DNA from: Octopus vulgaris
Lineage: Eukaryota
Reading direction: 5' to 3'
DNA length: 64,000 nucleotides
NCBI GenBank assembly: GCA_951406725.2
Contig: OX597823.1
Coordinates: 31,930,001 to 31,994,000, forward strand
Under the pieces are notes generated by a model. The model saw only the letters and a list, made by a program, of their open reading frames with translations. It was not told the DNA's origin and searched no databases. Shown in pieces: positions 16,380-47,700 of this stretch; position 1 is the stretch's first letter, and the number at the start of each line of letters is the position of its first letter. The position numbers and the translations under genes were made by a program.

Positions 16380-19300
16380 GAAATTTGTTACGAAAAGAAA
16401 ATATAAAATACACGTGGAAATGTAAGGGTAAAATATGAAAAATCAACGAAAATGCATATTGCAAATAGAAAAAGGCTATTTATGACAGGTAAGGACAAAT
16501 ATATACATTTAGATTGACTGAGGTAGTAATACAAGTCATAAAAGTCATTATTATGAGATGATTATAAGATGATAATAAAGTAAGAAAACAAAACGAACCA
16601 ATGGTTTACGTAAAGCTATTACCCAATATATATATATATATATATATATATTGGGTTGATGTATAATTATTGTGGCTTTTTTCATCAAATTTTATTCAAC
16701 AAAAACAATAATATTTAACAAAAGCATCTTTAAATGATAGTCTGACCGTCTACCAATCAAATGGGAAGCCATAATTGAAGTAGATAGTGAATATGCTCCA
16801 GAATAATCGTTTAAAGATGTTTTTGTTGAATAAAATTTGTTGAAAAAAATCCACAATAATTATGCACCAACCCAATATATGTTGTAAATGGGAAAAATAA
16901 TAACAATACTAATAGTGAGAGAGACGAAAAAGAAAAAGAAAGACATATCAATGCGTATGCAAGTCTATATGTGCAGTAAACTATAACATAAAGATAAAAA
17001 TAAAAATCTAACGAATGTGTTTAAAGGAATTGTTGAAGTATAATTTTTGGCAACAAAATCTTATGTGGGCCCTGGTGGAGAACCACTGACCTAAAGCATA
17101 TGTATATTGAGATCTGGCACCTGTTATTATTATCACAATGGCTTAGTGAAATCATTATGCACACACACAGACATACCATTTGCAAATATGTTTTGCTGGC
17201 ACGCATTAAGCACCATTCATGTGTGGGTTTTTGCCAGTGCCGCCTGACTGGCTCCCCATGCCGGTGACACATAAAAAGCACCATCTGAATGGGGCTGTGG
17301 CCAATGCCAGTGCCACTTGACTTGCTCCCATGCCAGTGGCACATAAAAAGCACCTACTACACTCTCAGAGTGGTTGGCATTTGGAAGGGCATCCAGTTGT
17401 AGAAGGCTTGCCAGATCAGATTGGAGCCTGGTGCAGCCTCCTGGCTTGCCAATCCTCAGTCAAACCATCCAACCCATGCCAGCATAGAAAACAGACATTA
17501 AACGATGATGATGATGATGATGTTAATGATGATGATGATGATAATTAAATGTTCCCTCTCTTCTAGAACGAACTGAAAAGTCTGCAAGATATGGCATCAC
17601 CAACATTTACCTTCAACCGTGATCTGATAAAACACAACATGGTAAAAGTATTTTGTGTCATTCTATATGAGAGAGAGAAAAATCATTGCTTAAAACTTAA
17701 CAAAATGCATCTCTATGGTACGGTGTGAGTGTGTGTGTGTGTGTGTGGCTTAAAGCACACTGACAAATCTCAAAGTCCATGGATAATAAACTACCACATA
17801 TAATAATACATTACTGTGTTTGTAAATGTGTGTATGTGTGTGTGTGAATAAGGGTAAACGACTGATATCTGCTCAGATTATGATATTTATATATTGATAC
17901 AAGTTGAATCACAGGAGATCAATAAAAAATTAGTTGAGGAATGTTCATAATGGTTGTGATATATGCTGGTATTGTTCCAGAATACATTATTTACATTTGA
18001 CGGATATTTGTCCTCATCTTGTTTGTTGTGAACACGTTTCATCTGATATACCCTCCAGCGTTCATCAGGTGTCCTGGGGAAATTTCAAACCTGGTTTCTC
18101 ATTCTAAGGTATTTTTCAATGTTATTATTATTATTCAGGTCACTGCTTGGAATCGAACTCGGAATCTTGAGATTATTTGCAGCGACCTGAATAATAATAA
18201 TAAGAACAATAATAATGATGATGATAACATTGAAAAATACCTTAGGAATGAGAACCCAGGTTCGAAATTTCCCCAAGACACTTGATGAAGGCTGGAGGGT
18301 ATATCAGGCAAAACGTTGTGTTAACAACTAACAAGATGAGGACAAATATCCATCAAATGTAAATAATGTACATAATTCCTTATCTCTTAGATATAGAAAT
18401 GTAGTTCCAGAATAGTTATAAGGTATTATAAATAGTCAATTAAGGCAGATCATCATAGGATAAAACCCAAAGCTGGATGAAAAAGGAAAGAAGATGTGTA
18501 GGTAGAACCTTACAGCTGTTTCAAGAATTGATGCACAGTTGGTGCAATCACCGGCAACCAGCATTTTAGGGGTAGTTTAAGATAGAATATACTGCCACTA
18601 AAATACCGGTTGCAGACTGCTTGCTGGTAATTGCACTAACAGCACACCAATTCTTGAAACAGCTGTAAGGGTCTACCTACACACTTCCTTCTCGTTCAAC
18701 TTTGGATTTTATCCTATGATGGTCTGTCTTAACCTATTATCTTAACCTATAATACCTTATAACTATTCTGCAACTATTCCAGCATATACCACAACCATTA
18801 TGAACATTCCTCAACCAATCTTTTATTGATCTCGTGTGATTTAATTCCTGGAACATTCTTTTCTGCCTTCAAGTTGCATCAATATATGTCATAATCTCAT
18901 TATTTGAATTGTATGTACCTCCTCATCACTGGACTATCATCTCTTTGGCCCCATGAAAGAGGGTTTCAGAGGCAAACATTATTCCAGTGACAAGGAAGTG
19001 AAAACTGTAGTGAAGAAGTGGCTCAAAAAACAGTCAACAGAATTTTATGGGGCAGGGATACATGCTCTCATTCGAAGGTGGAACATTGCTGTTGAGAGAA
19101 ACGGTGACTATGTTGAGAAGTAGAGATGTGATCGACAGAGGACCAGCTTCATTTTGATGTATGATACATGTTCCTGTGTTGGTAATTATACCTGTCCTAA
19201 ACAAAATGGCATTACTTTTTGACTCACCCTTGTACAAGGTATTAAATGTCTACATTGTAACACTGTGACTTCATACTGTCTAGTCAGTATTTACTGACAT

Positions 19301-22300
19301 ATCTTATATTGTGACATCACAGTGTTATAGTGATTTATGTTTATGTTGTGATACGTTATATGATATGTCAGTATATTAATGATACATATTTGCTTTGTGA
19401 TATTGATACATCATACCGTATCATAGTGTAATCATAGTGACATATATCTGCACAGTGATACTGCTACATGTGTTTGTGTGTGTGTGTGTGTATACACATG
19501 TATATAATAGTATAAGGATAAACGACCGATATTTGTGTGGTCAATAATAACTGACCTAAATCTAGATTTATATGTGGACCATTCTATGTGTATCTACAAA
19601 GTTCTGTGTAATGCATCTGTTGTGTTTCATGGTCAGTGTATATCTATTTACCCTCGTATTTGTCTACATTATCAAGGTGGTGTTTCAAGGTGGTGACGGA
19701 GCCCTACAAGTGTTACCTCCTCTTGTTGATGTCATACCAGAGGCAAGATTAAACCTGGTCATATACTACCTGAAACAAGGTAAGCACTACTTCTACTGTA
19801 GCCTCAAATTGACCAATACTTTAGGAATAGAATTTAGCTACACAGAAACTGTGCAGAAGCCTGTCATACACACACACAGAGTATTTGGTAGCATATTCTA
19901 TGCTATTGTTAGTTGTTTTAGGTATCAAATATATTCATTCATTCATTCGTTCGTTCATTCATCTTATGTCTATTTTTCCATGCTTGCATGGGTCCGACAA
20001 ATATCTTCTTTGGAGCATTGTTCTGTTGTCCATGCTACCCTAAACAAACTAATGCCTATCTGTTTTCCAAGTAAGGTTTATCTTATTCCACATAGATTTA
20101 AAGGCTTGAAATGACCAGACAGTTTGTTGGCAGAACTGAGAACTCTGCTGCTGTAACTTTTGTGCAACAAATTGCAGTTGCAGATATAAACAAGCACACA
20201 AATACATGTACACACACACACACACATACATGTGCATACATGTATATATATTTTCTTCTAATTTCCATCAACCAACTCCACTCAAAAAGTAGAACATACT
20301 CAAAGTCCACCCCGCTCTATCTTCTCACATGCCTTTCTACATATATTTGTAATCTTCTTCTGCCTCTGAACTGGACACCTTGCTTCCCTCAAATAAGTGC
20401 CATTCTTTTTCTCACTATCTCAACCAATAATTCTATAGCTTTCATCCCTAAACTTTAACAAACTCAACACAATAGAACCCCATTCATATAGTATCTACCC
20501 AAACCTTCCATTCATCTTCCTACTCCCCACCACAATTACTATTCCCTTACTAGCCTCATTATTAACCCCTCCCTCTTCTTGAACTATCTTTTCTCCTCTC
20601 ACCATTCCCTGTCTTAATATCCCCCACTCCCCACTCTAATACACTTAGCTCTCCACATTTAATCGTTCCATCATTTTACTTCTCTGCATAAAGATTTTAC
20701 ATTAAGAAATGTAAGATCTTCTCTACCCTGAAAAACCACGGCTAATCTCATCCTATGTTAAATGCATCAATGAGAGTGGTCATTGCCAGTGCCACCAGAC
20801 TGGCTCCCATGCAGGTGGTACGTAAAAAACACCTTTTGAGTGTGGTTGATGCCAGAACTGCCTGACTGGCACTCATGCACGTAAAAAGCACCCACTACAC
20901 TCTCGGAGAGGTTGGCGTTAGGAAGGGCATCCAGATTAGATTGAGCCTGGTGCAGCCTTCTGGCTCACCAGTCCTCAGTCAAACTGTCCAACCCATGCCA
21001 GCATGGAAAGCGGACGTTAAACGACAACAATGATGATGATGGACTAAATCTACCAATATTATTATGGATCACCAAGTCCCCTAGAAATAGCTGTTGGACT
21101 TATGATAGCTTTCTTCCACCCCTTCAAATTTTTGTCATATGTACGCTCGAAAATGGTGTTTTTTACGTGCCACCTACACAGGAGTCAGTCCAGCGGCACT
21201 GGCAACGACCTCACTTGAATGTTTTGTTCACGTGCCACTAAGGCGACGCTGGTAACGATCATGCTCAAATGCTGCTTTTTATGTGCCCACTGGCATGGAA
21301 GCCAGACAGCTGCTCTGGCAGTGATCCCGCTTGGATGGAGCTGTTAGCACTCCACTGGCACAAGTGCCAGTCATCGAATTTGGTTCAATTTCGATTTCTT
21401 TTGCCCCAACATGTCTTCACAAGCAGAGTTTAGTGTCCAATGAAGGGAGGTTGGCATGGGTGCCAGTCGTCGAATTTGGTTGTTCGATTTCGAATTCAAT
21501 TTCAATTTCACTTGCCTCAACAGGTCTTTGCAAGCAGAGTTTTATGTCCAATGAAGGAAAGGTATGCATAAGTGGGCTGGCTACATCCTGGTAAAGGCCA
21601 TGGGTTATGGTCTCACTTGTCCTGCCAGGTCTTCTCACGCACAGCATAATTCCAAAGGTCTCGGTCACTGGTCATTGCCTCGGTGAGGCCTAATGTTCGA
21701 AGGTCGTGCTTCACCACCTCATCCCAGGTTTTCCTGGGTCTGCCTCTTCCCCAGGTTCCCTCAACCGCTAGGGTGTGGCACTTTTTCACACAGCTATCTT
21801 CATCCATTCTTGCCACATGACCATATCAGCGCAATCGTCTCTCTTGCACACCACAACTGATGCTTCTTAGGTCCAACTTTTCTCTCAAGGTACTTACATT
21901 CTGTCGAGTAAGTACACTAACATTACACATCCATCAAAGCATACTGGCTTCATTCCTTGCAAGCTTACGCATGTCCTCAGCAGTCACAGCCCATGTTTCA
22001 CTGCCATGTAGCATGGCTGTTCGTATACATGCATCATACAGTCTGCCTTTTACTCTGAGCAAGAGGCCCTTTGTCACCAGCAGAGGTAAGAGCTCTCTGA
22101 ACTTTGCCCAGGCTATTCTTATTCTAGTAGTTACACTTTCTGCACACCCGCCCCCACTACTGACTTGGTTACCTAGGTAATGGAAGCTATCAACTACTTC
22201 TAGTTTTTCTCCCTGGAATATGGTGAAAGTTGTTCTCTGCACACTTTCAGTGTTTATTGCTCCTGAGCATCTGCCACATACAAAAACTATCTTCCTAGTT

Positions 22301-23354
22301 AGCCTTCCTTTGACATTGCTACACCTCTTATGTGTCCATAGCTTACACTGGGTACATCTTATAGAGTTTCTACCTACGCCTTTTCTACAGATCAAGCAGG
22401 GCCGTCTACCTGAAGGGATTTGTGGTTTGTCTACTTTTCTACTTATTAGGACTTTGGTTTTAGCTAGGTTGACTCTAAGGCCCTTTGATTCTAATCCTTG
22501 CTTCCACACCTGAAACTTCTCCTCTAGTTCTGATAGTGACTCAGCAATTAGAGCAAGGTCATCAACATAGAGGAGCTCCCAGGGGCATCCTGTCTTGAAT
22601 TCCTCTGTTATTGCCTGTGTCTTGAATTCCTCTGTATATATATATATATATATATAGGGAGAATTCACAAAAAAAAGACAAAAGACGAAGACAGGTGGTG
22701 TAGACAACAAACAGATGTCTTAGTTTAGCACTCAGGAAATGAAAAAGTCTTTAACGTTTCAAGCCTACGCTCTTCCACAGAAAGGAACACAGAAAGAAAC
22801 AAGCAGAATGAATAAAGAATGTGTAGTGGCTAGCGATCTATCATGGCTGAGTTCCTTTTGAGTGTTGGGCCTCACAGAGGCAATGACTGAGACCTTTGGC
22901 ATTATGTTGTGATCGAGAAGAAGACCCATTAAGCCAAGCAAAAGCACATTCATGGCAGATACTGGTGTCACATAAAAGCACCCATTACACTCTGTAAAGT
23001 GGTTGGTGTTAGGAAGGACATTCAGCCATAGAAAACCATGCCAAATCAGACTGGAGTCTGGTGCAGCCTTCCAGCTTACCAGTCCTGGTCAAACTGTCCG
23101 ACCCATGTCAGCATGAACAATGGATGTTAAATGAGGATGATGTATGTATGTACATGCATATATATATCTCTTTCTCTCTTTTACTTGTTTCAGTCATTTG
23201 ACTGCAGCCATGCTGGAGCACCGCCTTTAGTCGAGCAAATCGACCCCAGGACTTATTCTATCGGTCTCTTTTGCCGAACCGCTAAGTGACGGGGACGTAA
23301 ACACACCAGCATCGGTTGTCAAGCAATGCTAGGGGGACAAACACAGACACACAA

Positions 23355-23385
<31 letters not shown>

Positions 23386-26300
23386 CATATATACAACAGG
23401 CTTCTTTCAGTTTCCGTCTACCAAATCCACTCACAAGGCATTGGTCGGCCCGGGGCTATAGCAGAAGACACTTGCCCAAGATGCCACGCAGTGGAACTGA
23501 ACCCGGAACCATGTGGTTGGTTAGCAAGCTACTTACCACACAACCACTGCATATATATATATGATCAAAAACTTTTTTTTTCTGTTTCTATTCCCTTCTT
23601 AGATGATATTACTGAGGCATATGCCCTGATTAAAGATGTTGAACCTTGTACACCCCAAGAATATATTTTAAAAGGGGTTGTGAATGCAGCTCTTGGACAG
23701 GAACAAGGAACAGTAAGTAAAAGAGAACCCACCTTCATTCTTTCTCTCTCTATCCATCCTGTCTTGTCTGTTTCTCTCTCTCTCTCTCTGTATATGACAT
23801 ACATGTATGTATATTCATAAAGTTTCTCTGTTGTTCTGTGTTTCTGTTAGTTCTTTAATGGAAGTCCAGTGAATATTTTCTGGAAGTCATCAGCTAGTGA
23901 ATATGGAAGGAAAAGAATGAACAGGTAGTGTTCACAGGTGAATGTAGAGTAATTCAAAGAAAAAATGCAGCAGGGCGTAGTAAATAAGTAAATTTTATAG
24001 AGTGGGTAATAGAATGTGTCTTTGTGTTTTATTCCCCTAGCATCATTTGACAACCAGTGTTGGTTTGTTTATGTCCCCCCGTAACTTAGTGGTTTGACAA
24101 AAGAGACCTATAGAATAAGTGCTAGACTTTAAAAAAAGTTCTGGAGTTAACTTGTTCAACTAAGCCCTTCAAAGCAGAGCCCCAGCATGGCCACAGTGCA
24201 ATGATTGAAGCAAATAAAAGATAAAAAATGTTTACTCTTGATGTGACTGATTAATGACTTATCCTGGATTAAAGGCTGTTGGTCTCTGATTCACTTAAGA
24301 ATTTTGAAAATAAGATTATACATTGATTGTTTTATAAAGGTGGCACAGATGAGAAGATTTATTGGATGATGTGGTCTGGTGGCACTACATACTCATAGAT
24401 TGTGAGTTCTAATCTACTGCTGGTATTCTGTTTGTCTTTCTAAAGCAGAACAGTTTATTCTATATTACATCAGGTCATTATAGCTGTCAATAAGAATTAG
24501 CAGCACCCAGATTGTTTGGGATTATTACTAGATGTCCCTATCAAGGTGAACTTTTTGTTGGGGTGGGAAAAATACTTTATTATATGTTATCTCAATCACA
24601 TGGAATAGTTATCAGATTACTTGGGTATGTGAGAGTGAAGGCGCATGGCTTAGTGGTTAGAGCGTTGAGCTTACAATCATAAGGTTGTGAGTTTGATTCC
24701 CGGAATGGGCTGCGTGTTGTGTTCTTGAACAAGACACTTTATTTCACGTTGCTCCAGTCCACTCAGCTGTAGAAATGAGTTGTGACGTCACTGGTGCCAA
24801 GCTGTATCGGCCTTTGCCTTTCCCTTGGATAACACTGGTGGCATGGAGAGGGGAGACTGGTATGCATGGGCAACTGCTGGTCTTCCATAAACAACCTTGC
24901 CCGGACTTGTGCCTGAGAGGATAATTTTCTAGGTGCAATCCCATGGTCATTCTACCTGTAAGAGGAGAAGATTTTCCATCTACTTCACATCAAGGAACCA
25001 AAGTTAAAAACCAATCCTTAACACACAAAGCACGATGTGCCCTGATTGTAGCCATCAGGCACAGGTCTACAGGCCACGATTGTGGCCCAGATAGATGCAT
25101 TTAATTTATGGGTATTTGTTGAAATGTCTATCAAGAGATAGTTCAACTAATGACTTTTTCAGATGATCTAAAATTTGCCATCATTAAATACTAAGAAGAT
25201 ATTTTAACTATTTTTTGTTTTTTATGTGTGCAGAGTAGTCTCATTTTCATAAAATGTGCTCAGCAGTCCATGCTATGTAAGTGCAAATCCCAGAGCTTTA
25301 GAGGTTAAAAGCTATGTAGAGATTAAGGGAGATTTATATTTTATCAAGTTGGATTAATTACCATGTCCTTACTTATTACTATCATTGTTGCTGTTGTTGT
25401 TACAGAGAGAACATCTGAAGATAGCACAGCAATATTTCCAGTTGGTTGGTGGTTCAGCTAGTGAATGTGGTAAGTTAATTGTTATTGCACCACATGTGGT
25501 GGCTTCATACATGTGTCAATGTCACATGTATCTGTTCACCACGTTGTCTACTTATTACATTCATCTCCCCACAACACGTGTTATCTGTGTGTCACATGAG
25601 TCTCCCTGCTGCATGCAGCTATTCATAAATAAATATCCAATAAATAAGAAACAAGCAAAATATAGCCTCAGGGCCTAAAAAGACATGGAGGCTGTATTCT
25701 GTTTGTTTCTTATTTATTTCATCTTTCTCCATGTTTGTCTGTACCTGTAGAATTTATCTCTCCACCACCCTACCGTAGTAGTGGCAGGCTAAGGATTTTT
25801 GCAAGTTGTCCATCATTCCCAGCATCCTGAAAATCCTTCAGAAGAGGCAATTCATTGTGTATTCAAGGACACCAAGAAGTGCTCCCAAGCCTAATCGGAA
25901 GGCTGATGCAGACCCTCATATAAACTAGATGGCGGGGGTGGTGGTGCAATATTTGGTTTGCTATTTGCCACAGGGTCTGACAAATGGAAGATATTTCATA
26001 GACTGATAACAAAAACAGCTGGAGGGCTTTTATAGAGTGGTGGTCATGGTGGGGAAAAAACTGAAAAAAATTATTTTACAAAGTAATAAGTCTAATTTTC
26101 TGTTGTGTCTGGGGAGAGTCCACAAGAACTCATATAAAAAATCTTGCAAACCAAATCCAAAAACGAAATTCTGATTTTGATGTCCACAAAGTCAATGTAG
26201 GTCTTTTTCTACTATTACAACTACTGCGACGACTACTACTGCTGCTGCTACTACTACTACTATTACTACTCCTATTGCAGATACCATTCCAGGACGTCAA

Positions 26301-26791
26301 TGCATGGCTTCATGTTTCTTTTTATTGAAACAGTTCCAAGATGTTCTCCTCTACTTGAATTCCATTAAGGTGAGTTTTATCTTCTTTACCATGGCCCCTT
26401 TTTCCCCACATTTTTAAATATGGATGTTATATACAGTTCTATATTTTTGAGATGAGGAATTATGTACATTATTTACATTATTTACATTTGACGGATATTT
26501 GTCCTTATCTTGTTTGTTGTTAACACAGCATTTCAGCTGATGTACTCTCCAGCCTTCATCAGATGTCTTGGGGGAATTTCTAACCTGGATTTTCATTCCT
26601 AAAGTATTTTTCGTTGTTGTTGTTGCTGTTGCTGCTGTTCTTGTTGTCGTTCAGGTCACTGCCTGAAATCGAACTTGGAATCTTCGGGTTAGTAACCCTT
26701 GTTCTTAATGACTACGCCATATGCCCATGGCATAGTGGTTAAGAGTGCGGGCTACTAACTCCAAGATTACAAGTTCGATTCCAGCCAGTGA

Positions 26792-26846
<55 letters not shown>

Positions 26847-27208
26847 CTGGAAAAATACCTTAGGAATGAGAACCCAGGTTCAAAATTTCCCCAAGACACT
26901 TAATGAAGTCTGGAGGGTATATCAGCTGAAACATGTTAGCAACAAACAAGATGAGGACAAATATCCATCAAATGTAAATAATGTAAATAATGGATGTTAT
27001 ATGTTGGGCACTTTGACGTATTCTCTGCTGTGCATCACTATATACATAGGTGCAGGCATGGCTGTGTGGTAAGAAGTTTACTTCCCAACCACAGGGTTTC
27101 AGGTTCAGTCCTGCTGGGTGGCACCTTGGACAAATGTCTTCTAATATAACCCTAGGTCAACCAGAGCCTTTTGACTGGATTTGGTAGAGAGAAACTGAAA
27201 CATGCCTG

Positions 27209-27248
<40 letters not shown>

Positions 27249-30669: not shown

Positions 30670-30740
<71 letters not shown>

Positions 30741-32627
30741 TCTAAATGTCTTTTCAGATTTTCTGTATGATCCAGAGTGAGAAGATAAAGCATGACTATG
30801 TCTACATCAGTTGGTTGGCCAGATGCTGTAAGATAATATGCCATATTCTGTGGGCTGGCGGTGGGTGTGAGGGGAGGGGTGTCTTTCCAAGCCCTAGATT
30901 CACTTCACTCTTTAAATGTTCTTCACATCTTTGGGGAAGCCATGAACATCACAATCTTCCATTGCTCTTATCTTAAACTATATTAACAGCATTTTAAAAA
31001 GTGATTTTATGGTTTAAGAATATATGCATATATATATATATATATATGATGGCTGCCCCTTTGTTATCGAGTATGGCCATTGCATGAAGCTTAACTGTTA
31101 TTAGTGCTGTGATCGAATGTGACTTTTTAGCCCAGCTAAAGATCTACAATGTCTTGTACAGAATTGGCAGCTAAAACCTTAAACCTTTGCCGGTAATAGC
31201 CGGCTGTAGTTGTAACTGGGCTTCATGTACCTTTGCATGTCGTTTAAGTCCTCCTGCCGAATTACACTCTCTTCCATATGCCTGACAGATATGATTAGTA
31301 TGGTGTGTAACACCATCACCAGTGGCCAGGTTGTGACTCATCTGTCTCGCTTTATGACTATGAAGATGACTCTCGAGTCCAGCTTTACTGAGGCAGGGTC
31401 TTGCACAGACACTGCATGTCAGCATCATAGGAAGACCCTTTCCACCTGGAAGTGTAACAGCGATGCCCTTCCTGACATCCTATATGTATACATACATACA
31501 TACATACATACATACATACATGCATGCATGCATGCATGCATGCATGCATGTATGTATGTATGTATGTTGCAAAGGAAAACAAGCACATTAACCACACAGC
31601 TATGCCTGCATTTTTAGCTCAAACTCCAGAAGTCTTCCAGGCCATCGTCTCAGCTATTGTTGCAGCATAAGGAAGAATGGACTTGGCACAGTTCTATATT
31701 TAAGAGATGAGGAATTATGTACATTATTTACATTTGACGGATATTGGTCCTCATCTTGTTTGTTGTTAACACAATGTTTCGGCCGATATACCCTCCAGCC
31801 TTCATCAGGTGTCTTGGGGAAATTTCGAACCTGGCGTTGTGGTTAATAGCGCAGGCTACTAACCCCAAGATTCCAAGTTCGATTCCAGGCAGTGACCTAA
31901 ATAATAATAAGAAGAAGAAGAAGAAGAATAACATTGAAAAATACCTTAGGAATGAGAACCCAAGTGTAAATAATGTACATAATGTATGGACTTGACAGTT
32001 CTTATTTAGGAAACTGGGGTCAACTGTCAGTGATGGATTGTACTTTGCCAACAGACATGTTCTCTGTGCAACAGCATCATCTAACCTTATTTTCCCAACA
32101 TGGATACCTATATACCATCACTTCCAGTGACTCCTAGTGTGTGCATATGTGAATGCATATTCATGTGTAAGAGTGTCTGAGTGTTTGTGCTTGTGAATGA
32201 ATGTGTATACGAGTGAACATGTGCAAGTGTTTACACATGTAAGTGTGAATATATATTAGTGTGTGTGTGTGTGCATAAGTGAGTGGCTACACATGCAAGT
32301 GTGAGTGTATGTACCTTTCATTATCTACACATGCAAGTGTCTATATGTGTTTAATGTCTGTGTTTATTGTTATTCTGCAGACATTATGAATCACAAACCT
32401 CGTAATGCCTGGGAACTTTACCTGAAGATGGAAACTTCTGGCGAATCTTTCAGTCTCCTACAGCTGATTTCTAATGATTGTTATAAGGTGAGCTATTAAA
32501 ACACACACACACATTGTGATTTACGCATGCATCCACACATGCTTCACACACAGATGTATAAACACATGCACACATACATGCTTTACAGACACACACTCTG
32601 TTGTAGGTGGGTATATTTATATTTTTT

Positions 32628-33061: not shown

Positions 33062-33103
<42 letters not shown>

Positions 33104-34713
33104 AACATGTGTGTGTATGTGTGTAAATCAGAAAAAAGCACACTGTAAAAGAGAATTTGAGTGATTAAACCTTAATATTGTCAAATAGTATATTCCTAGT
33201 TATGGCATATAACTGGTCAGAAAGTTATCATTAGTTTCATGTCTGTTATTGCACTTGGTAATACTGACAACTCATCAGACATGTTGGCTGGAAGCACTTC
33301 ACCTTTTCAATGCTGAAGGTGAAAATACAATCTTGGTTAGCTTTGTATTAAAAGCAAGAAACTTCCTTATCTTTCCTGAAGGGGAAGGAAGAGTTGTCTG
33401 CCATATCTGAGTTCAAGAAATCCCCTGGATTGTGAAATTTCTCAGCTAAGAAAAATTTGCACTGTCTGCTTTTATTCAATTCTAGCACAGGTTGTATCAG
33501 CTGCTTCTAGTTAATTTTGTAGAGCATCCCTTACTCTTTTAATTGCCATATGTGGTTGATTATGTTCAATCCTAAAGGAGGACCTGTGATTATTTAACCT
33601 GGCCTTAAAGAAACCTTCCATCACCCCAACATATTTTTGTATGTATGTCCCTCCGTTGCTGCTCTTTTTATTGTTGTTAGACACCACCACTTCTGCTTTT
33701 TAGACCACAGCCTCATTATTGCATCATCCATTCACTGGTTAATCACTGCTAATGCTACATGTGCATCTTGCTTCTGCACAGGGCTTTAGGGCATTCACTA
33801 ATATTGTTTGACATTAGGTGCACAGTTATGACTATTGAATAATCTATATCTATGGCGCTGTATGAAATGCTTATCTAATCTGAGGAGGACCCTTCTTATG
33901 CAGGTTTCAAAGTTAAGTGAAAATGATGGGGCAAACCATAGGACTTTAGTGTCAGGCATATAAGTGATGTAATCCTTAAACTAACTGGCTGCAATAAGGG
34001 CTACTGCATCAAAAGCATCTTTATTCAAGGATAGATTTGAAATACTCTTACTGAGACCTTTTAAGAGGTGTTTAAAGCCTGTAAGCAGGAGGCTGTGATG
34101 ATATACAATAACCTTTCATTAGGTTTGCAGTAACACCTGTATGAACTACTCCACAAATGAAGTATTGCATCTAAGAAATTTACTGCGATAAAGTTTGTCT
34201 TAATGGTAACTTGAAGTCCAAGGGAGTTTAGGATGTGACTCAGGTCTTTCCTTAGCCTGTCTAAAAATGAACCAGGTCTTTCCTTAGCCTGTCTAAAAAT
34301 GAACCAGGTCTTTCCTTAGCCTGTCTAAAAATGAACCAGGTCTTTCCTTAGCCTGTCTAAAAATGAACCAGGTCTTTCCTTAGACTGTCTAGAAATGGCT
34401 AAAGTTTTATCCCTATACAGACCAAATTGGGTTAATTAGAATTTCTTGAGGTGTCAGGTATAAATAATCGTACGTGGTCACTGTTGAATAATCCCATCTC
34501 AACATTGAAGGAGCTTCCTGGGTCAGTTTGTTTGACTTAGGATGCTAAACCATTGTCAAACAGCAGGGTTTTTCTGCCATGCATTATTATCTCTATATCC
34601 CTTTGCTGACATTGATAAATTCCTTAGAAAGATAAGCAGTCCTTTGATGTAGGTGAATAAATGTCTATCATATCAAATTGGGTGAACCTAGCTCTCTCCC
34701 TCTTTCTTTCTTT

Positions 34714-34757
<44 letters not shown>

Positions 34758-37700
34758 GTGCATATATATATATGTATGCATACATGCATACATATATATA
34801 TATATATGAGTCAAGTACATCCACACAGCATAAAAATCAAATGGAAATTGTAGTTATGATACCCGTGCCGGTGGCACATAAAAAACACCATCCAAATGTG
34901 GCTGATGCCAGCGCCACCTGACTGGCGTCTGTGTCGGTGACACATAAAAAGCACCAACCAATCATGGCCGTTGCCAGCCTCCTCTGGCCCCTGTGCTGGT
35001 GGCACATAAAAAGCACCCACTACACACATGGAGTGGTTGGCGTTAGGAAGGGCATCCAGCCGTAGAAAGGAAGAGCATCCAGCCGTAGAAAGGAAGAGCA
35101 TCCAGCCGTAGAAAGGAAGAGCATCCAGCCGTAGAAAGGAAGAGCATCCAGCCGTAGAAACACTGCCAGATCAAACTGGAGCCTGGCACAGCCTCCTGGC
35201 TTCCCAGACCCTGGTCGAACTGTCCAACCCATGCTAGCATGGAAAACGGATGCTAAATAATGATGATGTTTGTGCATACCAAATCCACTTACAAGTCTTT
35301 AGTTGGCCCAAGACTATTGTAGAATATACTTGTCTATGGTACCACCAAGTGCTACTGTATTTGAAAGTATGAGGTTAACAAATGAACTTCTTGCCTGGAC
35401 ATCCAGGCTTGTGTCAATATATATATATTAAGGCAGTGAGCTGGCAGAAACATTAGCACGTCGGGCCACATCACTTAGTGGTATTTCGTCTGTCTTTACG
35501 TTCTGAGTTCAAACTCCGCCAAGGTCAGCTTTGCTTTCATCCTTTCAGGATCGATAAATTAAGTACCAGTTGCATACTGGGGTTGATCTAATCGACTAGC
35601 CCCCTCCCCAAAAATTTAGGGCCTTGTGCCTAGAGTAGAAAAAAAAATATATATATGTATTATATAATGTATGTGTGCATATATATATATATAAACCATG
35701 CCAAAACAGACAGAGAGCCTGAAAGGCTCCTGTCAAACCATCTAACCCATGCCAACATGAAAAACAGACGTTAAATGATGATGTTGTTGATGAATGTGAT
35801 GAGGTCTTTAATGGTTTCTTTTTGTTTTTTTCTGTGTCAGATGGGTCAGTTTTATTACTCAGCAAAGGCATTCCATGTCTTGGAGAGACTCGATCCGAAC
35901 CCAGAATACTGGGAAGGTAAAAGAGGAGCCTGTGTTGGTGTTTTTCAGCAGATCATTGCAGACAGGGAAGTCAAGTGAGTACCAAACTACCCTTTTTCTC
36001 TTACCAACTATTCCATTATTGATGATGAATTCTTCATATTCCAATATTGGTTTCAAATTTTGGCACAAAGCCAGAAAGTTTGTGGGGGAGGGGTTACATC
36101 AACCCCAGTAAGCAACTGGTACTTTTTTATCAACCCCAAAAGGATGAAAGGTAAAGTCAGCCACAGCAGAATTTGAACTCAGGACATCAAGACAGATGAA
36201 ATGCCGCTAAGCATTTTACCTGACACGCTAACAATTCTGCCAGCTCACTGCCTTTCTTCGTGTTCTAATATTCTTTTCTTTTCTACTCTAGGCACAAGGC
36301 CTGAAATTTTGGGGGAAGGGGCCAGTTGATTAGATCAACCCAAGTACAATAAATTAAGTACCAGTGAAACACTGGGGTCAATGTAATCGACTAGTCCCCT
36401 CCCACCTTCAGGCATAAAATTTTAGAGGAGGTGAAGTAGTTGATTAAATATGAACCCAAGAAGGATGAATGGCAAAATTGTCAGCAGATGGATTTGAACT
36501 TAGAATGTAAGGTACATAGCTAAATGCTGAAAGGGGTTTTGTCCAGCACTCTGCCAATTCTGTCAATAAACAAGTCTAAAGATAGTGGGGAAATGTTTGA
36601 GTGGATAGAATATTCTTTTCTACTCCAGGCAGAAGACCCGAAATATTTGGGGAGGGAGCCAGTCGATTAGATCAACCACAGTATGCAACTGGTACTTAAT
36701 TTATCGACCCTGAAAGGATGAAGTACAAAGTTGACCTCGGTGGAATTTGAACTCAGAATGTAAAGACAGATGAAATACTGCTAAGCATTTCACCAAGCAT
36801 GCTAACGTTTCTGCCAGCTCACAGCCTTACAAAATATTTATTTCTTTATTTCCACAGGGGTCTAAACATAGAGGGGACAAACAAGGACGGACAAAGGGAT
36901 TAAGTTGATTACATCAACCGCAGTGCGTAACTGGTACTTACTTAATCGACCCCGAAAGGATGAATGACAAAGTCAACCTCAGCAGAGTTTGAACTCAGAA
37001 TGTAACAGCAGACAAAATACCGCTAAGCATTTTGCCCGGCATGATAACATTTCTGCTAGCTCACTTCCCTGAGTGGACAGAATATTGAATTACTACCAAT
37101 AGTGGTGATGGCCATGTAGGTAGAGTTTATTGGTATACCAACTCACAGTTTGTAAGTTCAAATCTGCCTCAAACTTCTGTTCCTATACAGAACATTTTAT
37201 TCTACTTTTCCTCCGTTTTAGTGATGGGAGGATAAATTACCAGACCATCTGGGAAGTTTACCTAAGACAAGCTGATACCCTATCCAGGTGGAATTTTATC
37301 TTTTTCCTCTCAGTTTGTGCTATGAATCTCAAATTAAGTATTAAGTTTTTACATGTTTTATATTAAATGCCTAATATAGTTAAAAGAAAGTCTGGGGACA
37401 AATTAACATGTTATTTGTTTGAAATATGGTATAAGAAAAATCCAAAGGCCAAGTCTTCAGTTACATGACAGTCGTAATAACAATTGTTTCATTATTTTAC
37501 ATATTTGTACAATATGTGTTTATATGAAAGGAAGCTGTGCTGTAACTTTTAAATCAGTTGTTGGAACTTTGTGGAAGAATTTTGCTTCATGTAATATGTC
37601 AGGAGTGATACAAATGACAAGAGTAAGTCAAATTCTGTGTTGGCCAAGGGGAGGTGGAGGATATGAATGATAAAGTCTGTAGGATATCAGTTGAGAGGTC

Positions 37701-38692: not shown

Positions 38693-41600
38693 ATAGTTAT
38701 TTTATATTGAAGAGAATTATTTATACTGAAAGGGAAGTGGTATTAGATTATTAACCTTATCTTTTCTGGAGCTTTTCATTTGTAAAAACCAATATTTTTA
38801 CCTACTTTAGTGTGTCCATTCATCATTTACATTGCCAGTATTCAAACACGTTTTTATTTCATGCAAGGTTCTTAAACTTTTACCCATAAGACTAGTCACA
38901 CACAAATAATACAAATGTTTATCAATTTAAGAAGTGCTTAGCCTTTTTTATGATCCTACTTCTAACAACAACAACAACAACAACAACAGACTGAATAGTG
39001 TGTTTCAATAAGACTTCAGAATAGTTAAGAATCTGGAGGAGATTTTGTTAAAATGGTTGATACAATATTTATTATTTGTTTACAGTTAACTGGTGTTTGG
39101 GACCCCACGAAAAAGTAAATGTTTCTAGCAAATCAAATCTCATATCATTATTCATATAGAAATGTTATGATAATGTTATTCATATAATTGTGACATTTCC
39201 ACCAATGTTTTTAAATAAATATGAATATTTTAACCCTTTTGACACTATATTGCCTGGGACTGTCTATGATTCAGTGATATAAACTTTCTGCTTTTAAATA
39301 ATTTAAATTAAAATCTTTTTTAGAATTTCATGTTAATTTTGTTTAATGACTAAGTTATTTTATTAACTTACTCATTATTTCCAAAATTAATTGAAACAAA
39401 GGCAGTGTTGTTCAGCAGAAATATGGTAATAAAAGGGTTAACATAAATGGTCTTAGACAAGGTTGTCTGCTTAGGGCCACATATCTTTATTGTTGCACAG
39501 CCCCAGGTTAACTCTAACCAAACAAAATAGGTGCTCCACTTGTCACCTGTGCAGTCTTTTTTTTTCGAAATGGGACAGTGTGATTTGAGGGAGCTTTGAC
39601 TTGTATATCTAACAGGCCAGGGACCACAAATGTTTGGGGGCCAATACATATCAATAGTAATGCTGGGTCTGGAAGTGACTGATATATTTGTTGGGTTTTG
39701 AAAACTATAAACTGAGCCAGGAAAGATGAGGTTAACAGTTGAAACCATTGTTCCATCAGTGTTTGTTAAATTATCGCCATTTCTATCTCTTCTCTTTGTT
39801 CCGAGTCAAGTTGTCAGTCAGACATTTCAACAGTATTTCCGTCCAAACTTCACAAACTTTAATCACAACAACTTTCTCAATTCCAGGTTTGATTTAAAAC
39901 ATAAATCTTCCCAGAAACATATTGCAAATACCTGGCTTGTTTGTCAGTGAAAGGAAAGAAATGACATGTGAAGTGATGATATTCATGCCTTTCTAAATGG
40001 TATTAGAATGTAAGAGAATGGTTGCAACATAAGATTTTATTGTCTGTCCAAATTTATGACAATTTCAGGAAGGAGATGATTTAGTGCTAAGGGGATGTCT
40101 TTGTAGTTTGTTTCAATAATAATACAGATTTCTTACCTTGGTACAAGATTCCAGATTTGTAGAGGAAAGAGTTTTAGTCAATTAAATCAGTCTCAGAAGG
40201 ATGAAGATAAAGTTGACTTCCAGCAGGACCGAAACTGTTGATGCTACTAAATACTATAAGCTATTTAACCTATTGCTACTGACACATCATCTAATAACGA
40301 TTGACCAATGCTTTACCACTTACTCCATGGATAGCAGTTCAATCCTTACTTCTGCTGTGGCTGCTGACCTTCTTTTATCTTTAGCTTGTTTCAGTCATTG
40401 GACTGCAGCCTTGCTGGGTTGAAGGGTTTTAGTTGAATAAATCAACCCTGATACTTGTGTCTTTTGTTTGAAGTTTGGTACTTATTCTCTCAGTCTCTTT
40501 TGCCAAACCACTAAGTTATGGGGATGTAAACAAACCAACACTGGTTGTCATGTAGTGATGTGGGGATGGATGAGCGACAAACACAGGTACAAAGATGGGT
40601 AAATAATTTTGTTAGCTAGGAAGCGACTGAGACAAACTACCAGGTACCACTCTTATTTCATAGTTGAGCACTTAGCAGTGGGTGGTGGATACATCCTAAT
40701 GTTAAGACCCTTAATTAGTTCTTAATTGTTCTGATGTGGTAGAAAGAATCATTCTACTTATGCTGTTTATATAAAGTGCTTTTTAAAAAAAGTGAGAGAA
40801 GCATGAATGTCACCAAATCTTGTCAGCACTCCTACACAAAGCTATCACATCCATGTTAGAAAACTATAATATAAGAAAAAAAATACATCATTAAAGAACA
40901 AATAAAATATGTAACATAAAAATGTGTAAAAATTTTATTTCTCTGCAATAATTAACAATTTAATGGTTTTAAAAAGCACCCATTACACTCTCGGAGTGGT
41001 TGGCTAACTACATCGCTACATCTGCCACATTCAAAGCCTATCTTTTCTGGCAGTTTGCCTGTGATCCTTTGTATTGCTGTGATTAAGAAATTTGTTTTCT
41101 GGTCACATGGTTTCGAGTTCAATCACCCTGCGTGGCACCTTGGGCAAAGTGTCTTCCACTACAGCCCCACGCTGGCCAAAGTTTTATGAGTGAATCTAGG
41201 AGACAGAAACTGAAAGATGCCCATCAAGTGTGTGTGCGTGCGTGCCTCCTTGACTTGACATTACATGAAAGCTGTAAATGAGAGTCACTGTTATACAAGT
41301 GGTGTCATTCATTTACAGTCTTCTATGAAAATCTGTCATGGAGAACTTTTACTTTGCTTAAAAACAAGCGAGAGCAACATGAAGAGCATCCAGCTGGAGG
41401 AAATCCACCTCACTGAATTCTGTCTGACTCATGCCAGCACGGAAAAGGGGACATCATGATGATGATGAATACTAGACAGGTTATGGTCACAGAACAGACA
41501 AACAAAAACAAGAGATTGTAGTTTTTCTTCTTTTTTTTTTTAATTATTTTATTCAATTTCAACTTGAAACAATAAAATAGCAACAACAGAAATTATAATC

Positions 41601-42128
41601 TAATACTCAGAATATAATTTCTTCAAAACCTTTGGTATCTCCTTTTGTTCTATAATAAATAAATAAATATAAATAATAAGAATACATAACAAACAATGGA
41701 AGTTCTTTTTTGTTCTGGAATTGATTGGAACACAGTGAAAGAATATTATTTTAAATAGTTTTAAAACATAGTTTGGTGTTTGTTGTATAGACTACTGGAT
41801 TGTTTTTGATCTAGTTTCTTCCTGGTGACAGTCAATTCTTTGGTTGGTCGATTCCAATGAGAAATGGTGAAATAAATAGATTTCCTCCTCCAAACTGGAC
41901 AGACTGGTGGATGATGTGAGTTAAAAAATTTTGGCAATAATGGGTGGTAGACTAAGATGGAACCTGGAATAAAAGAGAGACGCTGTTTTGGAGTGATGAA
42001 TGCCACAAAACAAATGGTACAAGAGATCAAGGAATATTCTTCCAAAGCAAACACTTTTGACAATGGTGATACTGATGGTACTACCCTTACCACCCACATC
42101 ATATCATTCATTACCAGCAGCAGCGACG

Positions 42129-42263
42129 TCAGATTAGTGGAGCAACATAATCCGTATAATCAGTGTTAATTTTACTTTTTTCCAAAAAAGAAAGGCAGTG
42201 CCTGCCAAACAAGGACAGACTGAGAGTATTAAGGGCCCAATTGACCGACAGCTCAGTCCATCT
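42129..42263 (-). CDS. minus-strand gene last coding exon G
   Basis: caacag|AGA...TGA; RWTELSVNWALNTLSLSLFGRHCLSFLEKSKINTDYTDYVAPLI*; followed by non-repetitive UTR-like sequence and AATAAA at 41553-41548. Confidence 0.7.
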   Translation of the reverse strand, partial: RWTELSVNWALNTLSLSLFGRHCLSFLEKSKINTDYTDYVAPLI

Positions 42264-44708
42264 CTGTTGCCAAAGGACAACAAGAGAATCAAATGGATTT
42301 GACAAATAATAAGATGAGTGAATCAAATAAATTGATCAATGTGCTTGGATGATGAGGCAGGCAAATCAAATACGCTTAGATGAGGGAGTGGATTAATGAG
42401 GTGGGCTGGATAATAACATGAGTGAATGAAATTATCTTCAATGACAGGAAGAATAAATATAATGGTCTTAAATGACAGAGAGGTTTATACTGTTACTATC
42501 CATAAAGAATTTGATAACTAGAGGGTTATAGTCTGTCACAGTGCTTCATAGAGTAACAGTTAAATGAGGAGTTTAAAAGAAACCTTTTGCTTTTCTCCTG
42601 ACTTAGCAGCTTAAAGGAGTAATAAAATTTGCTGTACAAACATAAGGAAGCTAAAATTTAATTATAAAAACATCTCAGCCCAACAAGAGGTTCATCAGCA
42701 TCATCATCATTTAATGTCTGTTGTCCATGAGTTGGATAGTTTGACCAGAGCTAACAAGCTGGAGAGCTGCACCAGACTCCAGTCTGACTTGACATGGTCT
42801 CTATGGCTGGATGTCCTTCCTTAATGCCAACCACTTTACAGAGTGTGCATTGGTTTGGTCATGCAATGTGGATGGATGTTGACAGCTCCATAAAGAAGTG
42901 CCAATCACTCCTCCAATTACATGGAACATGTGGAAGTGGAAAACCCAAGAAGACATGGGATAAAGTACTGAAGAACAGCCTCAGGATGCTGAACCTTTCA
43001 GGCGAGATAACAAAAGACCAAGATGCCTGGTGCCTTGCTGTGCTGAAGAAGCCCCGTGCTCCACAGCAGAAGTGTTAAGACCAGTTCCCCACTGGTGGAG
43101 AGGTTTGGCCCGCAAGAGTCCTGTGCATGTGCCATGTATATTGTTTCATTGTTAGTTTTTATTTACCTACAAACAAATATTTTATTTCAAATATTTACAT
43201 GAGCATATATGGGGTCCCCAGATGATAAGATAACTCACAGGGGGTCTTCAAACAAAATAAGGTCAGGAACCCCTATGTTAAATGTTCCAACAGATAAACC
43301 ATGTTAACATGGAACTTATTCGATATTCATCATTGTTTTTACATCTGCTTTTCCATGTTGGCATGGGTTAGAGTGGGTGTTTTATGACAACAGCATTTTC
43401 TGAGGTCACCCTCAGTTGGTTGCCTCTTTACAACAAGCAGGGAAATGGTGAACCTACTCCAAAAAGTGGGGCAGATACAGTATTCAGTATAGACATGGAA
43501 TTCAGCAAACCCATGGAATCTCAAGAAATAACAGACTGAAAACAACTATTTTGAAGACAATGGAAAAGTAGACGACTCACTTCTGGTTCTTTGGCAGATT
43601 TAGAACAATTCCTTAGAGAACATCCTTCGATTTGAAACGGTAACCTGTTGACATTGCTGAAATGAAGACAGGCATACAGAACAGATATTATTGTTGTAGT
43701 AGTAGTAGTGATGGTGGTAGTGGTAGTAGTGTTGGTGGTGGTGTTAGTAGTAGTAGTGTTGTTGTTGGTGGTGGTAGTAGTAGTGTTGTTGGTGGTGGTG
43801 TAGTTATGGTGGTGGTGGTGGTTGATGAGCTAACTTTCTTTATTGGCATTGATTTGTGGACATAAGAGTTGTATTATCAAGATGGCTGAGCAGACATATT
43901 TGTGCAACAATGGATGCAGAATTTCCTGTAGAGTGAAATTAATACAAATGAGATAGGTTGCGAAATGGACAAGAATCTGATGGAAGTTATGTGGTAAATG
44001 AGTATATATTCACCTCTTTATACCTCTTCAATTTGTGTGAGTGAGAGAGAGGAGCTTTTCGGGTCTTGTCTACCTAATCCATTCCCAAAACTTTAGACCC
44101 TTGCCCAAGGACTGAACCACAAACTTGGTGGTTGGAAAGCAAACTTCTTAACCAAACAGCCATGCCTGTAACTTCAATCTCGCAGTTCAAAGCCTTATAT
44201 GAGGTCAATCAAATGGCATTTTATAGCCATTTAGATTTCATAGCAGTTGAATGGAAATTGAGAGGCCATTAAAAGACTCAGTCAGTTGAGTGTACCTATA
44301 CATGGTTGTTTGAACTGCTAGGAAAAGCAGCCAAGTAGCCCTCAAATTTCACCCTGTTAGCTAATGTAAGGAGACAATATATTAGATGATGTAGAACAAG
44401 AAACTTCTAAAAAGAACGATGGAATGCATTTGATCTTCGGTCTTCTCAATCAGGAATGATCTGGAACTAAACAATGTCAAAATGCTAAATAGGGTCCTTT
44501 TATTCTTTTATTTGTTTCAGTCATTTGACTGTGGCTATGCTGGAGCACCATCCTTTAGTCGAACAAATCAACCCCAGGACTTATTCTATTGGTCTCTTTT
44601 GAGACCACTAAGTTACAGGGACGTAAACACACCAACACTAGTTGTCAAGCTATGGTGGTGGAACACAGATGCACAAACATATACATACATAAACATATAC
44701 ATACATAC

Positions 44709-44744
<36 letters not shown>

Positions 44745-47700
44745 GACAGGCTTCTTTCAGTTTCCGTCTACCAAATCCACTCACAAGGTTTTGGTCAGTC
44801 CAAGGCTATAGTAAAAGACACTTGCCTAAGGTGCCACACAGTGGGACTGAACCTGGAACTATCAGGTTGGTAAGTAAGCTACTTACTACACAGCCACTCA
44901 GCAGACTTGGTAAAATCAAGACGGAATAGTATCATAAAAAAAAAACATACAGTTCTAGATTTAAGAGATGAGGAATTATTTACATTTGACGGATATTTGT
45001 CCTCATCTTCTTTGTTGTTAATACAATGTTTTGGTTGATATACCCTCTTAGGGAAATTTCGAACCTGGGTTCTCATTCCTAAGGCATTCTTCAATGTTAT
45101 CATTATTATTACTATTCAGGTCACTGCCTGGAATTGAACTTGGAATCTTGAGGTTAGTAGCCTGCGCTCTTAACCACTAAGCCATATTCCAATGGGCAAT
45201 TATGGAGTGAATTTTAGGGCTTATAAATCTAATATGGGAACCAGTATTAAGGAAGGACAGGAAAATATTAGATTTATAAGCCCTAAAATTCACTCCATAA
45301 TTGTCCATGGGCATATGGCGTAGTGGTTAAGAGTGCGGCCTACTAACCCCAAATTTCCAAGTTCAATTCCAGGCAGTGACCTGAATAGTAATAGTAATAA
45401 CATTGAAGAATGCCTTAGGAATGAGAACCCAGGTTCGAAATTTCCCCAAGACACCTGATGAAAGCCGAAATGTGTTAACAAATATCCGTCAAATGTAAAT
45501 AATATAAAAAAAAACCCATTCTCACATACACACAAAGAAAACTAGTGATGATATAAGTAAACTTACCTGAAAGGTAAATTTACAAAACTTTGGAAGGTAG
45601 CAGCTTTAGCTATTGAACATCTATAATCTTTAAACGGAACAACAGTTAGATAGACTTTAATAAAGAAACAGACAAAGATGTTTTTCAACAGAAGATAGGC
45701 TGAAATATGAAACCAATTTAAGGATTGTAAATGAAATATTGTGATGAGATTATTGGAATGCAATTTCAGAACACAAATATGATGAAAACTGTTTTCACAT
45801 CCTATCTATCTCTTTATGGATGCATGCATGCAGCTGACACTCTTCAACTACAGATGACATTTGTCCTCTGGGCAGCAACTTTTCTTCCCCTCACAGAACT
45901 TTTTCGACATTGTTTCATCCCAGTTGTTTTTATTGTCAGCAAGCAAACCAGGGCTGTATATATTTCCCTCCAGCATGAAAGACACTATGTGCTTGCAGCC
46001 AGCATGCCTGTAGTATTCTCAATATTCCCAAGTGCAATCACCATTGTGCACCTATCATTAACCTCTTCGTTATTGTATTTATTTTGAGATGCTCTATGTT
46101 ATTTTTTTCAATTAATTTTAAATATAACAAAGAATTTACTAAAATAACTTAGTTATCATTCAGCTAGTGTTAGGAACATAAATTGTGACTAAGGTTTGGT
46201 GGAAGAATTTAATTCAAAACAAAACATTTGTAATACAGAACCAGACCCTGTTTCAGCCAGGTTGGTATCAAAACAGTTAAGAATTGTTTCTCTATTATAT
46301 ATTTTAACCCTTTTCTTACCATATTTCTGTTGAGATGCTCTGTGTTTCTTTCAATTACTTTAAGTATAACAAAGAATTTAGTAAAATAACTTAGTTATCA
46401 TTAAGCTAGTGTTAGGAACATAAATTGTGACTAAGGTTTGGTGGAAGATTTTAATTCAAAACTTATGAAAACAAGATATTTATACTAAAGAGCCGGAGCC
46501 AGTTTCAGCCGGGTTGGTAACAAAAGAGTTAACATTCTAACTAGTAATATGCCATAACCAGAATATTCTGCTCAACAATATAAATACACACACACATACA
46601 CACATATATATACATTTTTTCCATGCTAATGTGGATTGATGTGAAGGCACATGGCTCAGTGGTTAGAGCATCGGGCTTATGATCGTGAGGTTGTGAGTTC
46701 GATTCCCGGACCGGGCTGCATGTAGTTATTTTGAGCAAGACACTTTATTTCACATCGCTCCAGTTCACTCAACTGTAGAAATGAGTTGCGTCGTCACAGG
46801 TGCCCAGCTGTATCGGCCCCTTTGCCTTTCCCTTGGATAACGTCAGTGGTGTGGAGAGGGGAGGCTGGTATGCATGGGCGACTGCTGGCCTTCTACAAAC
46901 AACTTTGCCTGGAATTGTCCCTCGGAGGGTAACTTTCTAGGTGCAATCCCATGGTCATTCATGACCAAAGGGGGGAGGGGGTCTCCTCCATGGATTGGTA
47001 TATAGGACTAAACCCACTGTCCCTCTCACACTCGTTCTGCTATGCTGACATGGGTTGGCAAGTTATCAGCCATTATATATAGTCCTCCATCGCCATCTTC
47101 ATGTATGTGTTGAAAAACAAAAATTAAAAACCAAGAACAAAAAAGGAAAAAAATTAGCAAAAATAGAACAAAATTGAAACAATAGTAACAACAAAACTTA
47201 CTAGAATTGGTTTTGGTGAACTGTTGTGAAGCTGAATGAGGTAAAATTCTCCACGATACTTTACGTTTGTGAGGAAATTTTTCATGTGCTGTGCTGTCTC
47301 GGCGCTCAGTTTTCAAATGGTTTCTAGAGATGGTGTTGGATCTGAGACTGTTTACTGCTGGTTTTTTCTTGAACAAACTATATTTTCGTTTCTTTTTCGG
47401 TGGCATATTTCTGCAGATACATGGCAAGAAAGTGAAGAGATCACAGTAAGTAACACACTTGTGTATAAGACATGTATCATGGAGAAATTACATCAACATA
47501 TTCAATACATGCAACATTCATAAATATATATATATATTTATATATAAATATATATATATATATAATACAGAAATGGGACAAGAACACGCAAAACATCCGG
47601 ACAGCTAGGTGATACAAAAAGGGACAAAACATCCAGATAGACGATACAAAGAAAACAAGGACGGGTCATTCAAAGTTTTCTTTCCTCAGTCAAGCACCAG

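Follow-up and report, generated by a model that had tools for sequence, protein, structure and literature searches.

A protein-coding Penelope-like element of Octopus vulgaris with a tRNA-like cassette, a probable RNA polymerase III promoter, in its pseudo-LTR

Repeat insertions in the analysed window

The window analysed here is a stretch of 64,000 nucleotides of Octopus vulgaris DNA (GenBank assembly GCA_951406725.2, contig OX597823.1, positions 31,930,001 to 31,994,000), in which a unit of ~ 300 nt is inserted five times. This unit is the pseudo-long terminal repeat (pLTR) of a protein-coding Penelope-like element (PLE) of the Penelope/Poseidon type, and not a separate non-autonomous family. 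The order of modules in the element is stop codon/TATA box, 29 nt, tRNA-like segment, (AAT)n microsatellite, ATG, hammerhead ribozyme motif, tail, reverse transcriptase (RT), and GIY-YIG endonuclease (EN), and there is very little doubt about this anatomy, which we regard as secure.

Four insertions, A (17983-18403), B (26432-26991), C (31688-31983), and D (44948-45506), are built of two arms placed head-to-head, with the tail on one arm only, while the fifth, E, is a single arm. This arrangement and these places had been described in the initial annotation of the window, and they were confirmed, together with target site duplications (TSDs) of 11-13 bp in A-C and an A-rich one in D.

The left arm of insertion A (17983..18175, minus strand) is a pLTR copy that extends from position +36 of the tRNA-like segment to the tail-less 3' end. 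Its right arm (18186..18403, plus strand) comprises (AAT)n, the in-frame ATG at 18248, a mutated hammerhead at 18277-18322, and the tail, and the pair is flanked by an 11 bp TSD (17974-17984 / 18404-18414). In insertion B, the left arm (26432..26730, minus) starts at tRNA position -3 and has the tail, and the right arm (26727..26991, plus) starts at +7 and ends without it; the TSD is 13 bp long (26420-26432 / 26990-27002). Insertion C has a tailed left arm (31688..31834, minus) with the best-kept hammerhead of the window (31768-31813), and a right arm (31832..31983, plus) that starts at tRNA +8 and has its hammerhead deleted, between the copies of a 12 bp TSD with one mismatch (31677-31688 / 31986-31997).

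The left arm of insertion D (44948..45235, minus) starts at tRNA -43 and has the tail, with the hammerhead core deleted. On the plus strand, the last codons of the PLE open reading frame (ORF), encoding the C-terminus after GIY-YIG, are found at 45232..45279, and the stop codon TAA (45277-45279) lies inside the motif TATAAG (45275-45280). The tRNA-like segment with its A box and B box, a predicted promoter of RNA polymerase III (pol III), follows 29 nt behind the stop (45309..45382). The rest of the right arm (45383..45506) is comprised of the microsatellite, the ATG at 45421, a hammerhead with a deletion in stem II, and the tail-less end. The single arm of insertion E (29148..~29303, plus) retains the last ORF codons, TATA/stop, tRNA-like segment, and microsatellite, and its 3' part is missing.

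Identity of the repeat unit

A search of the genome (2.8 Gb) with the centre of insertion D retrieved copies that extend upstream of the unit, and these translate as the end of a GIY-YIG endonuclease and then as RT. The RVT_1 profile was matched in three of six stretches, and GIY-YIG and CCHH motifs align with those of PLE homologs; the Pfam GIY-YIG profile gave no score on the one decayed stretch scanned. Sequence behind the tail, used as a query in the same way, disclosed 30 loci with the N-terminal part of the ORF, mostly located directly behind the tail. A coding PLE sharing 3' end and tail, for which the initial annotation had proposed a search, is present in this genome, mostly in decayed copies.

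In the column-majority sequence of 43 natural segments, a frame of 835 codons is open from the ATG behind the microsatellite; it includes the hammerhead and the tail, and is closed by a stop 29 nt upstream of the tRNA start. The hammerhead core is located in this frame 34 nt after the ATG, and the stop codon is contained in TATAAG. What had been taken for an upstream flank of the unit is in fact the end of the ORF for RT and GIY-YIG, and the ~ 33-nt tail is coding sequence near the start of the ORF, which runs on into its N-terminus.

Homologs were found at 52-66% identity, and in P0008, P0124, and P0138 the N-terminus that overlaps the hammerhead is retained. Named matches are PLE-like proteins of lizard, snake, echinoderm, and arthropod. 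No Cys-rich RT-EN linker is present in the alignment, which points to the Penelope/Poseidon clade as a tentative placement. All of the 30 best protein matches in the genome belong to the same family, and no sister family was detected among them; the tRNA-like segment follows the ORF in 24, and the other six end before it. An intact ORF was not found among 82 scored candidates, the longest stop-free match lying in a 569-aa frame, and copies diverge from the majority by 5.1% (3.4-7.3%) at non-CpG sites. Partial tandems (L145, L146, L160, L164, L171, L175, and L178) put the cassette in front of the ORF. The family thereby shows the features of endonuclease-bearing (EN+) PLEs, namely one ORF with RT followed by GIY-YIG, pLTRs in partial tandems, inverted truncated copies, and a one-sided tail.

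Copy number and anatomy of insertions

The main sample consisted of 85 loci at the first 100 exact-core matches on C1 (5 overlapping dropped), 600 kb of further sequence, and the window; this choice introduces no bias as to 5' ends and the tail, but does so as to the presence of a hammerhead. The exact 19-nt hammerhead core occurs 10,377 times in the genome (control 0). It is exact in 53 out of 120 arms that were not chosen by it, which gives at least ~ 23,000 arms, and six insertions in twelve arbitrary 50-kb stretches (the 600 kb) extrapolate to roughly 10,000-60,000 genome-wide. The family is present in tens of thousands of copies, mostly 5'-truncated and decayed. Sequencing runs under five organism labels contain 58-85% of 26 sampled words.

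Insertions (n = 101) are head-to-head in 60 cases, single arms in 38, and of other types in three, and the tail is confined to one of the two arms in 51 of the 54 pairs that retain both 3' ends, as was claimed for the window. TSDs, searched for with 29 further loci added, are present in 51 of 74 pairs, with a length of 8-18 bp, mostly 11-13 bp (mismatched control: mean 4, maximum 12), and in only 5 of 40 single arms, the boundaries of which are uncertain. The 3' ends fall at two sites ~ 30 nt apart. Foldbacks, one-sided tails, TSDs, and 3' ends match published PLE traits. Mobilization by PLE machinery, as proposed initially, holds, as do the one-sided tail and the variable TSD.

Arms of one insertion share variants above the level of random pairs (5.8% vs 1.7%, 99 pairs). 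In L018, L093, and L009, subfamily markers differ between the arms, and an insertion is therefore built at times from two RNA templates. The assumption that both arms always copy one molecule was discarded, as several pairs differ in subfamily haplotype. The two-template insertions would fit an RNA dimer. We also rejected the tail as a mark of the first-made, longer arm, because the tailed arm is longer in 34 cases and shorter in 32.

The tRNA-like cassette and 5' ends of copies

The short copies have at their 5' end a tRNA-related head with A and B boxes, as in a tRNA-derived short interspersed element (SINE). The A-box/B-box pair was obtained in 5 out of 20,000 shuffles of the family column-majority segment and is thus well outside chance expectation, in agreement with the tRNA-like head postulated in the initial annotation. 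Default ARAGORN reported no tRNA in the window. The relaxed setting (-ps80) matched ~ 18 copies, and since it fired throughout unrelated loci too, it was not used as evidence. The segment may resemble tRNA-Arg(ACG).

Among 127 arms reaching the tRNA-like segment, 54 begin at -8..+4, 9 at -20..-9 (six of these are short snap-backs, judged by eye), and 18 further upstream. Expressed per nucleotide, the stop rate is 0.051 at -8..+4, 0.020 at +5..+17, 0.002-0.005 at +18..+56, and 0.001-0.002 upstream. The peak is located 28 nt behind the TATA box, which is the position where pol III would start. Stops were seen with unrelated partner arms and in single arms, and are therefore not only palindrome junctions. 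The tRNA 5' end is the starting point of most short copies, as well as of two copies (L160, L169) that run on into the ORF. On the grounds of box structure and position of 5' ends, the cassette probably serves pol III.

Runs of four T (T4) are absent from the sense strand, while 2.9 are expected under synonymous shuffling (P = 0.03). In 17 other retroelement ORF stretches (RVT_1 or zf-RVT), 40 T4 runs were observed, compared to 49.8 expected.

In L006, L308, L226, L015, L238, and L013, snap-back inversions of 10-20 nt occur at the pre-tRNA palindrome before the jump to the second arm. A young family of long interspersed elements (LINEs), represented by L311, L082, L069, L019, and L070, shows 93-98% amino acid identity among its copies and open frames of > 500 aa, and is T4-poor in four stretches.

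The hammerhead motif

The fold of the intact copy L044 is that of a minimal type I hammerhead: stem I has 5 bp and stem II 6 bp, an A is bulged, and stem III is palindromic. The hammerhead reported initially therefore stands as a fold of the family, while in the window itself the motif is altered by one or more changes or deletions in each of the seven hammerhead-bearing arms, and Rfam gave no hammerhead match in the window, 16 loci, and two short stretches. Within the catalytic core, a single non-CpG variant is frequent; it affects the free position N7 (57/292) and is linked to two other markers (P ~ 1e-11). Confinement of core variation to N7 suggests constraint in active lineages. In related PLEs, the hammerhead stems differ and still pair. 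In the distant relatives P0008, P0124, P0138, and L326, too, the hammerhead overlaps the ORF shortly after the start codon. At this position, predicted cleavage would remove the ATG.

Cassettes in related elements

A distant relative, L326 (JGI1357J11328_10009043), is 38% identical, has a tandem period of 2791 nt, and contains an apparently intact ORF. In its segment 2780-3030, TATA, A box, B box, AAT repeat, in-frame ATG, and hammerhead are located behind the stop, with the A/B pair obtained in 1 of 20,000 shuffles. The distance between TATA and A box is 38 nt, compared to 41 nt in the octopus family. The A-B spacing in L326 suggests a tRNA with a long variable arm.

Among 78 public relatives, the A/B pattern was detected in L326 and L328 only, and in L328 it lies upstream of the ORF match. 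Inspection of 3' regions in 24 of the 78 showed the stop-to-hammerhead interval in about a dozen, which, apart from L326, are without the cassette by eye; several of those without it carry CCAAT/TATA motifs in this interval. No relatives were found in the search of viral contigs. The search of assembled-genome contigs gave five loci, of which L434 and L435 were inspected, both without the A/B cassette. These two PLE contigs reside in records of bacterial metagenome-assembled genomes (Poribacteria, Buchnera), and are likely contamination by host DNA.

Interpretation of the cassette

According to the reading that we favour, with a probability of roughly 0.6, a coding PLE carries between its stop and the next ATG a tRNA-like cassette of TATA, A box, and B box, which is likely a pol III promoter and from which SINE-like copies are shed. 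The SINE-like idea of the initial annotation is abandoned as regards a separate lineage and persists in a new form, in which short copies starting at the tRNA 5' end likely come from pol III RNAs of the element's own end.

Several observations weigh against this interpretation. The scarcity of T4 runs is not significant under first- and second-order Markov models (P 0.14 and 0.23), is modest, and is not unique, as one LINE family is also poor in them (3 in 6.1 kb). L326 has two T4 runs just behind the hammerhead (6.1 expected per unit). An end pile-up was not seen in three unstranded public RNA runs (~ 6% of each; species may differ), where 8,641, 6,687, and 6,016 reads matched equally on both strands; these reads neither support nor refute pol III use. 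A 12-nt palindrome at the 5' peak makes snap-backs, and RT stalling could explain part of the peak. Of the six tandem copies whose upstream pLTR reaches this zone, four begin further upstream, so many long templates began elsewhere, by read-through or from multimers. Rfam, run on the sequences listed above, does not score the segment as a tRNA, and the parent tRNA is not fixed, Arg being best for two of three copies and Thr for one (10 isotype/anticodon labels compared). The distance from the predicted cleavage site to the inserted 3' ends beyond it is 50-85 nt, so that cleavage does not define these ends. Finally, uncapped pol III RNA is a poor message.

The weakness of T4 depletion, the missing RNA ends, the palindrome with its snap-back junctions, and the four upstream pLTRs that reach beyond the peak are also what recommends the alternative of an ordinary PLE, with a passenger tRNA-derived SINE head in the 3' untranslated region, transcription by pol II or by read-through, and a peak caused by RT stalling or snap-back at the palindrome. 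We consider it unlikely. RT stops are few (0.001-0.004 per nt) within the hammerhead stems, although these are stronger, and within the tRNA 3' half. A structural stall predicts that stops are as frequent in upstream pLTRs as in 3' pLTRs, but ends fall within -20..+4 in 2 of 6 upstream pLTRs vs 61 of 78 arms (P ~ 0.02, binomial, small n). In addition, L326, a distant relative, has its promoter elements in the same arrangement.

An independent non-autonomous tRNA-SINE/retrozyme family that parasitizes a PLE, as presumed in the initial annotation, would account for the predominance of short copies starting at the tRNA 5' end. These copies retain A and B boxes and could be secondary sources, and schistosome SINE-like repeats are described as joining a pol III promoter to a hammerhead (PMC6765202). 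Nevertheless, every part of the unit, tRNA-like segment included, is present in ORF-bearing copies, which run upstream into GIY-YIG/RT and downstream into the ORF N-terminus. Subfamily markers occur at like frequency in both classes (N7-A in 13/65 long vs 20/88 short arms; tRNA+64-A in 23/57 vs 27/86), and no variant above 10% frequency is private to short copies. It follows that short copies do not form a separate family, and this explanation is highly improbable. A miniature inverted-repeat or other DNA transposon, suggested by inverted arms at both ends, has a negligible probability, because the symmetric terminal inverted repeats and fixed-length TSD of such elements were not seen: arms are unequal, the tail is one-sided in 51/54 pairs, TSDs vary between 8 and 18 bp, 38 of 101 insertions are single arms, and the sequence is continuous with the RT ORF.

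Proposed mechanism

Under the favoured interpretation of a promoter cassette within a coding PLE, pol III would start ~ 6 nt before the tRNA-like segment. From the 3' pLTR it would give a short RNA running into flanking DNA, and RT/EN of the element would copy this RNA back as SINE-like arms, the bulk of insertions. Starting in an upstream pLTR, pol III could transcribe the entire ORF, which is free of T4. Cleavage by the minimal hammerhead would require a dimer and, as the motif lies 34 nt behind the ATG, would cut the start codon off from the remaining ORF. Priming of both arms would take place at the 3' end of the element, at two preferred points ~ 30 nt apart, and sometimes on two RNA molecules.

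A broader scenario is tentative and, in our estimate, doubtful. In some coding PLEs, the pol II promoter of the pLTR may have been replaced by a pol III promoter of tRNA origin, either on at least two occasions or in an old, hidden lineage represented by the octopus family and L326. Pol III transcription would then proceed end-to-end along a terminator-free ORF, the hammerhead would act as a switch between message and template, and SINE-like RNAs would be shed from the element's own ends. If true, this would offer a direct route to elements combining pol III and hammerhead, such as schistosome Sm-alpha, and the autonomous element would be its own SINE.

How PLEs are transcribed, and why they insert as inverted pairs with the tail on one side, are unsettled questions in the field; in the accessible literature on transcription, a single promoter is described, that of D. 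virilis, and a single transcript model, that of Chlamys-3. A pLTR with a pol III cassette would provide a defined start site and a very large set of copies on which both questions could be tested. It would be a case of a tRNA-type promoter in a coding retroelement, and SINE-like and retrozyme-like elements could have originated from such pLTRs. In automated annotation, a single element of this kind may be split into "SINE" and "Penelope".

Other features of the window

A PLE of a different family, older and decayed, occupies 33190..34700 (minus strand) and is 69-85% identical to its relatives. The initial annotation recognized it correctly as a decayed PLE. As the partner of the pLTR unit it is ruled out by its different hammerhead and by a nucleotide similarity no better than E 0.003 over 37 nt, which is not meaningful. 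Its own motif, shared with L241-L265, is hammerhead-like with a long stem, unlike that of the pLTR unit. This family may have a Neptune-like endonuclease motif.

A LINE fragment with RVT_1 and PHD-finger matches is located at 21937-22719 (minus). Short plus-strand frames at 11078-11335, 19566-20114, 23290-23820, and 25358-25678 resemble exons of a putative host TPR-type gene. If this gene is real, insertion A (17983) and insertions B-D would lie in or behind its introns.

Comparison with known systems

The cassette of TATA, A box, and B box is the new part of the PLE pLTR, while foldback, tail, and hammerhead are already known PLE traits. Sources on Penelope/Poseidon PLEs report a one-sided tail of 30-40 bp (PMC8557442), and minimal dimer-type hammerheads in PLEs, which in truncated copies occur as pairs on opposite strands at distances of 100-700 bp (PMC4209133). 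Our literature search found no description of a PLE with a tRNA or pol III cassette in its pLTR; Repbase, Dfam, SINEBase, the 2026 octopus library, and Ohshima and Okada 1994 were outside this search and may hold the family as a consensus. In the accessible text of the 2026 octopus repeat annotation, 190 Penelope-like families are listed, and details of hammerheads or promoters are not given (PMC13282606).

The octopus SINEs OR1 and OR2 are cited as CORE-SINEs in the accessible parts of three papers (PMC4824008, PMC4758252, PMC5804259). The PLE unit shares a tRNA head with OK, OR1, and OR2, but its body is PLE coding sequence, and identity with them, compared by descriptions only, is unlikely. 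The heads of all three, attributed to Ohshima and Okada 1994, are reportedly tRNA-derived, those of OR1 and OR2 from tRNA-Arg.

Sm-alpha and Sj-alpha repeats of Schistosoma are described as a pol III promoter followed by a hammerhead (PMC6765202). As far as that description goes, they are non-coding tandems with canonical hammerheads, whereas the octopus family is a coding PLE with a minimal hammerhead and dispersed foldbacks. Animal non-LTR retrozymes have a type I hammerhead, and their derivation from PLE pLTRs has been proposed (bioRxiv 10.64898/2026.07.22.740005; PMC7761336). They form head-to-tail arrays, and the accessible text mentions neither a tRNA head nor pol III; in the octopus family, 2 of 101 insertions were classed as tandem or other.

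The closest likeness is to EN+ PLEs of the Penelope/Poseidon type (D. virilis Penelope; Poseidon/Xena), in the single ORF with RT and C-terminal GIY-YIG, pLTRs in partial tandems, and the inverted 5'-truncated copy. Penelope of D. virilis is likewise reported to keep its promoter in the pLTR (PMC2377424), a TATA-less LINE-like promoter accompanied by an intron. The octopus family differs in its A/B-box cassette with TATA on the stop codon, in the pile-up of 5' ends at the tRNA start, and in the lack of T4 on the sense strand. Its cassette is positioned in the slot where Drosophila Penelope has a LINE-type promoter.

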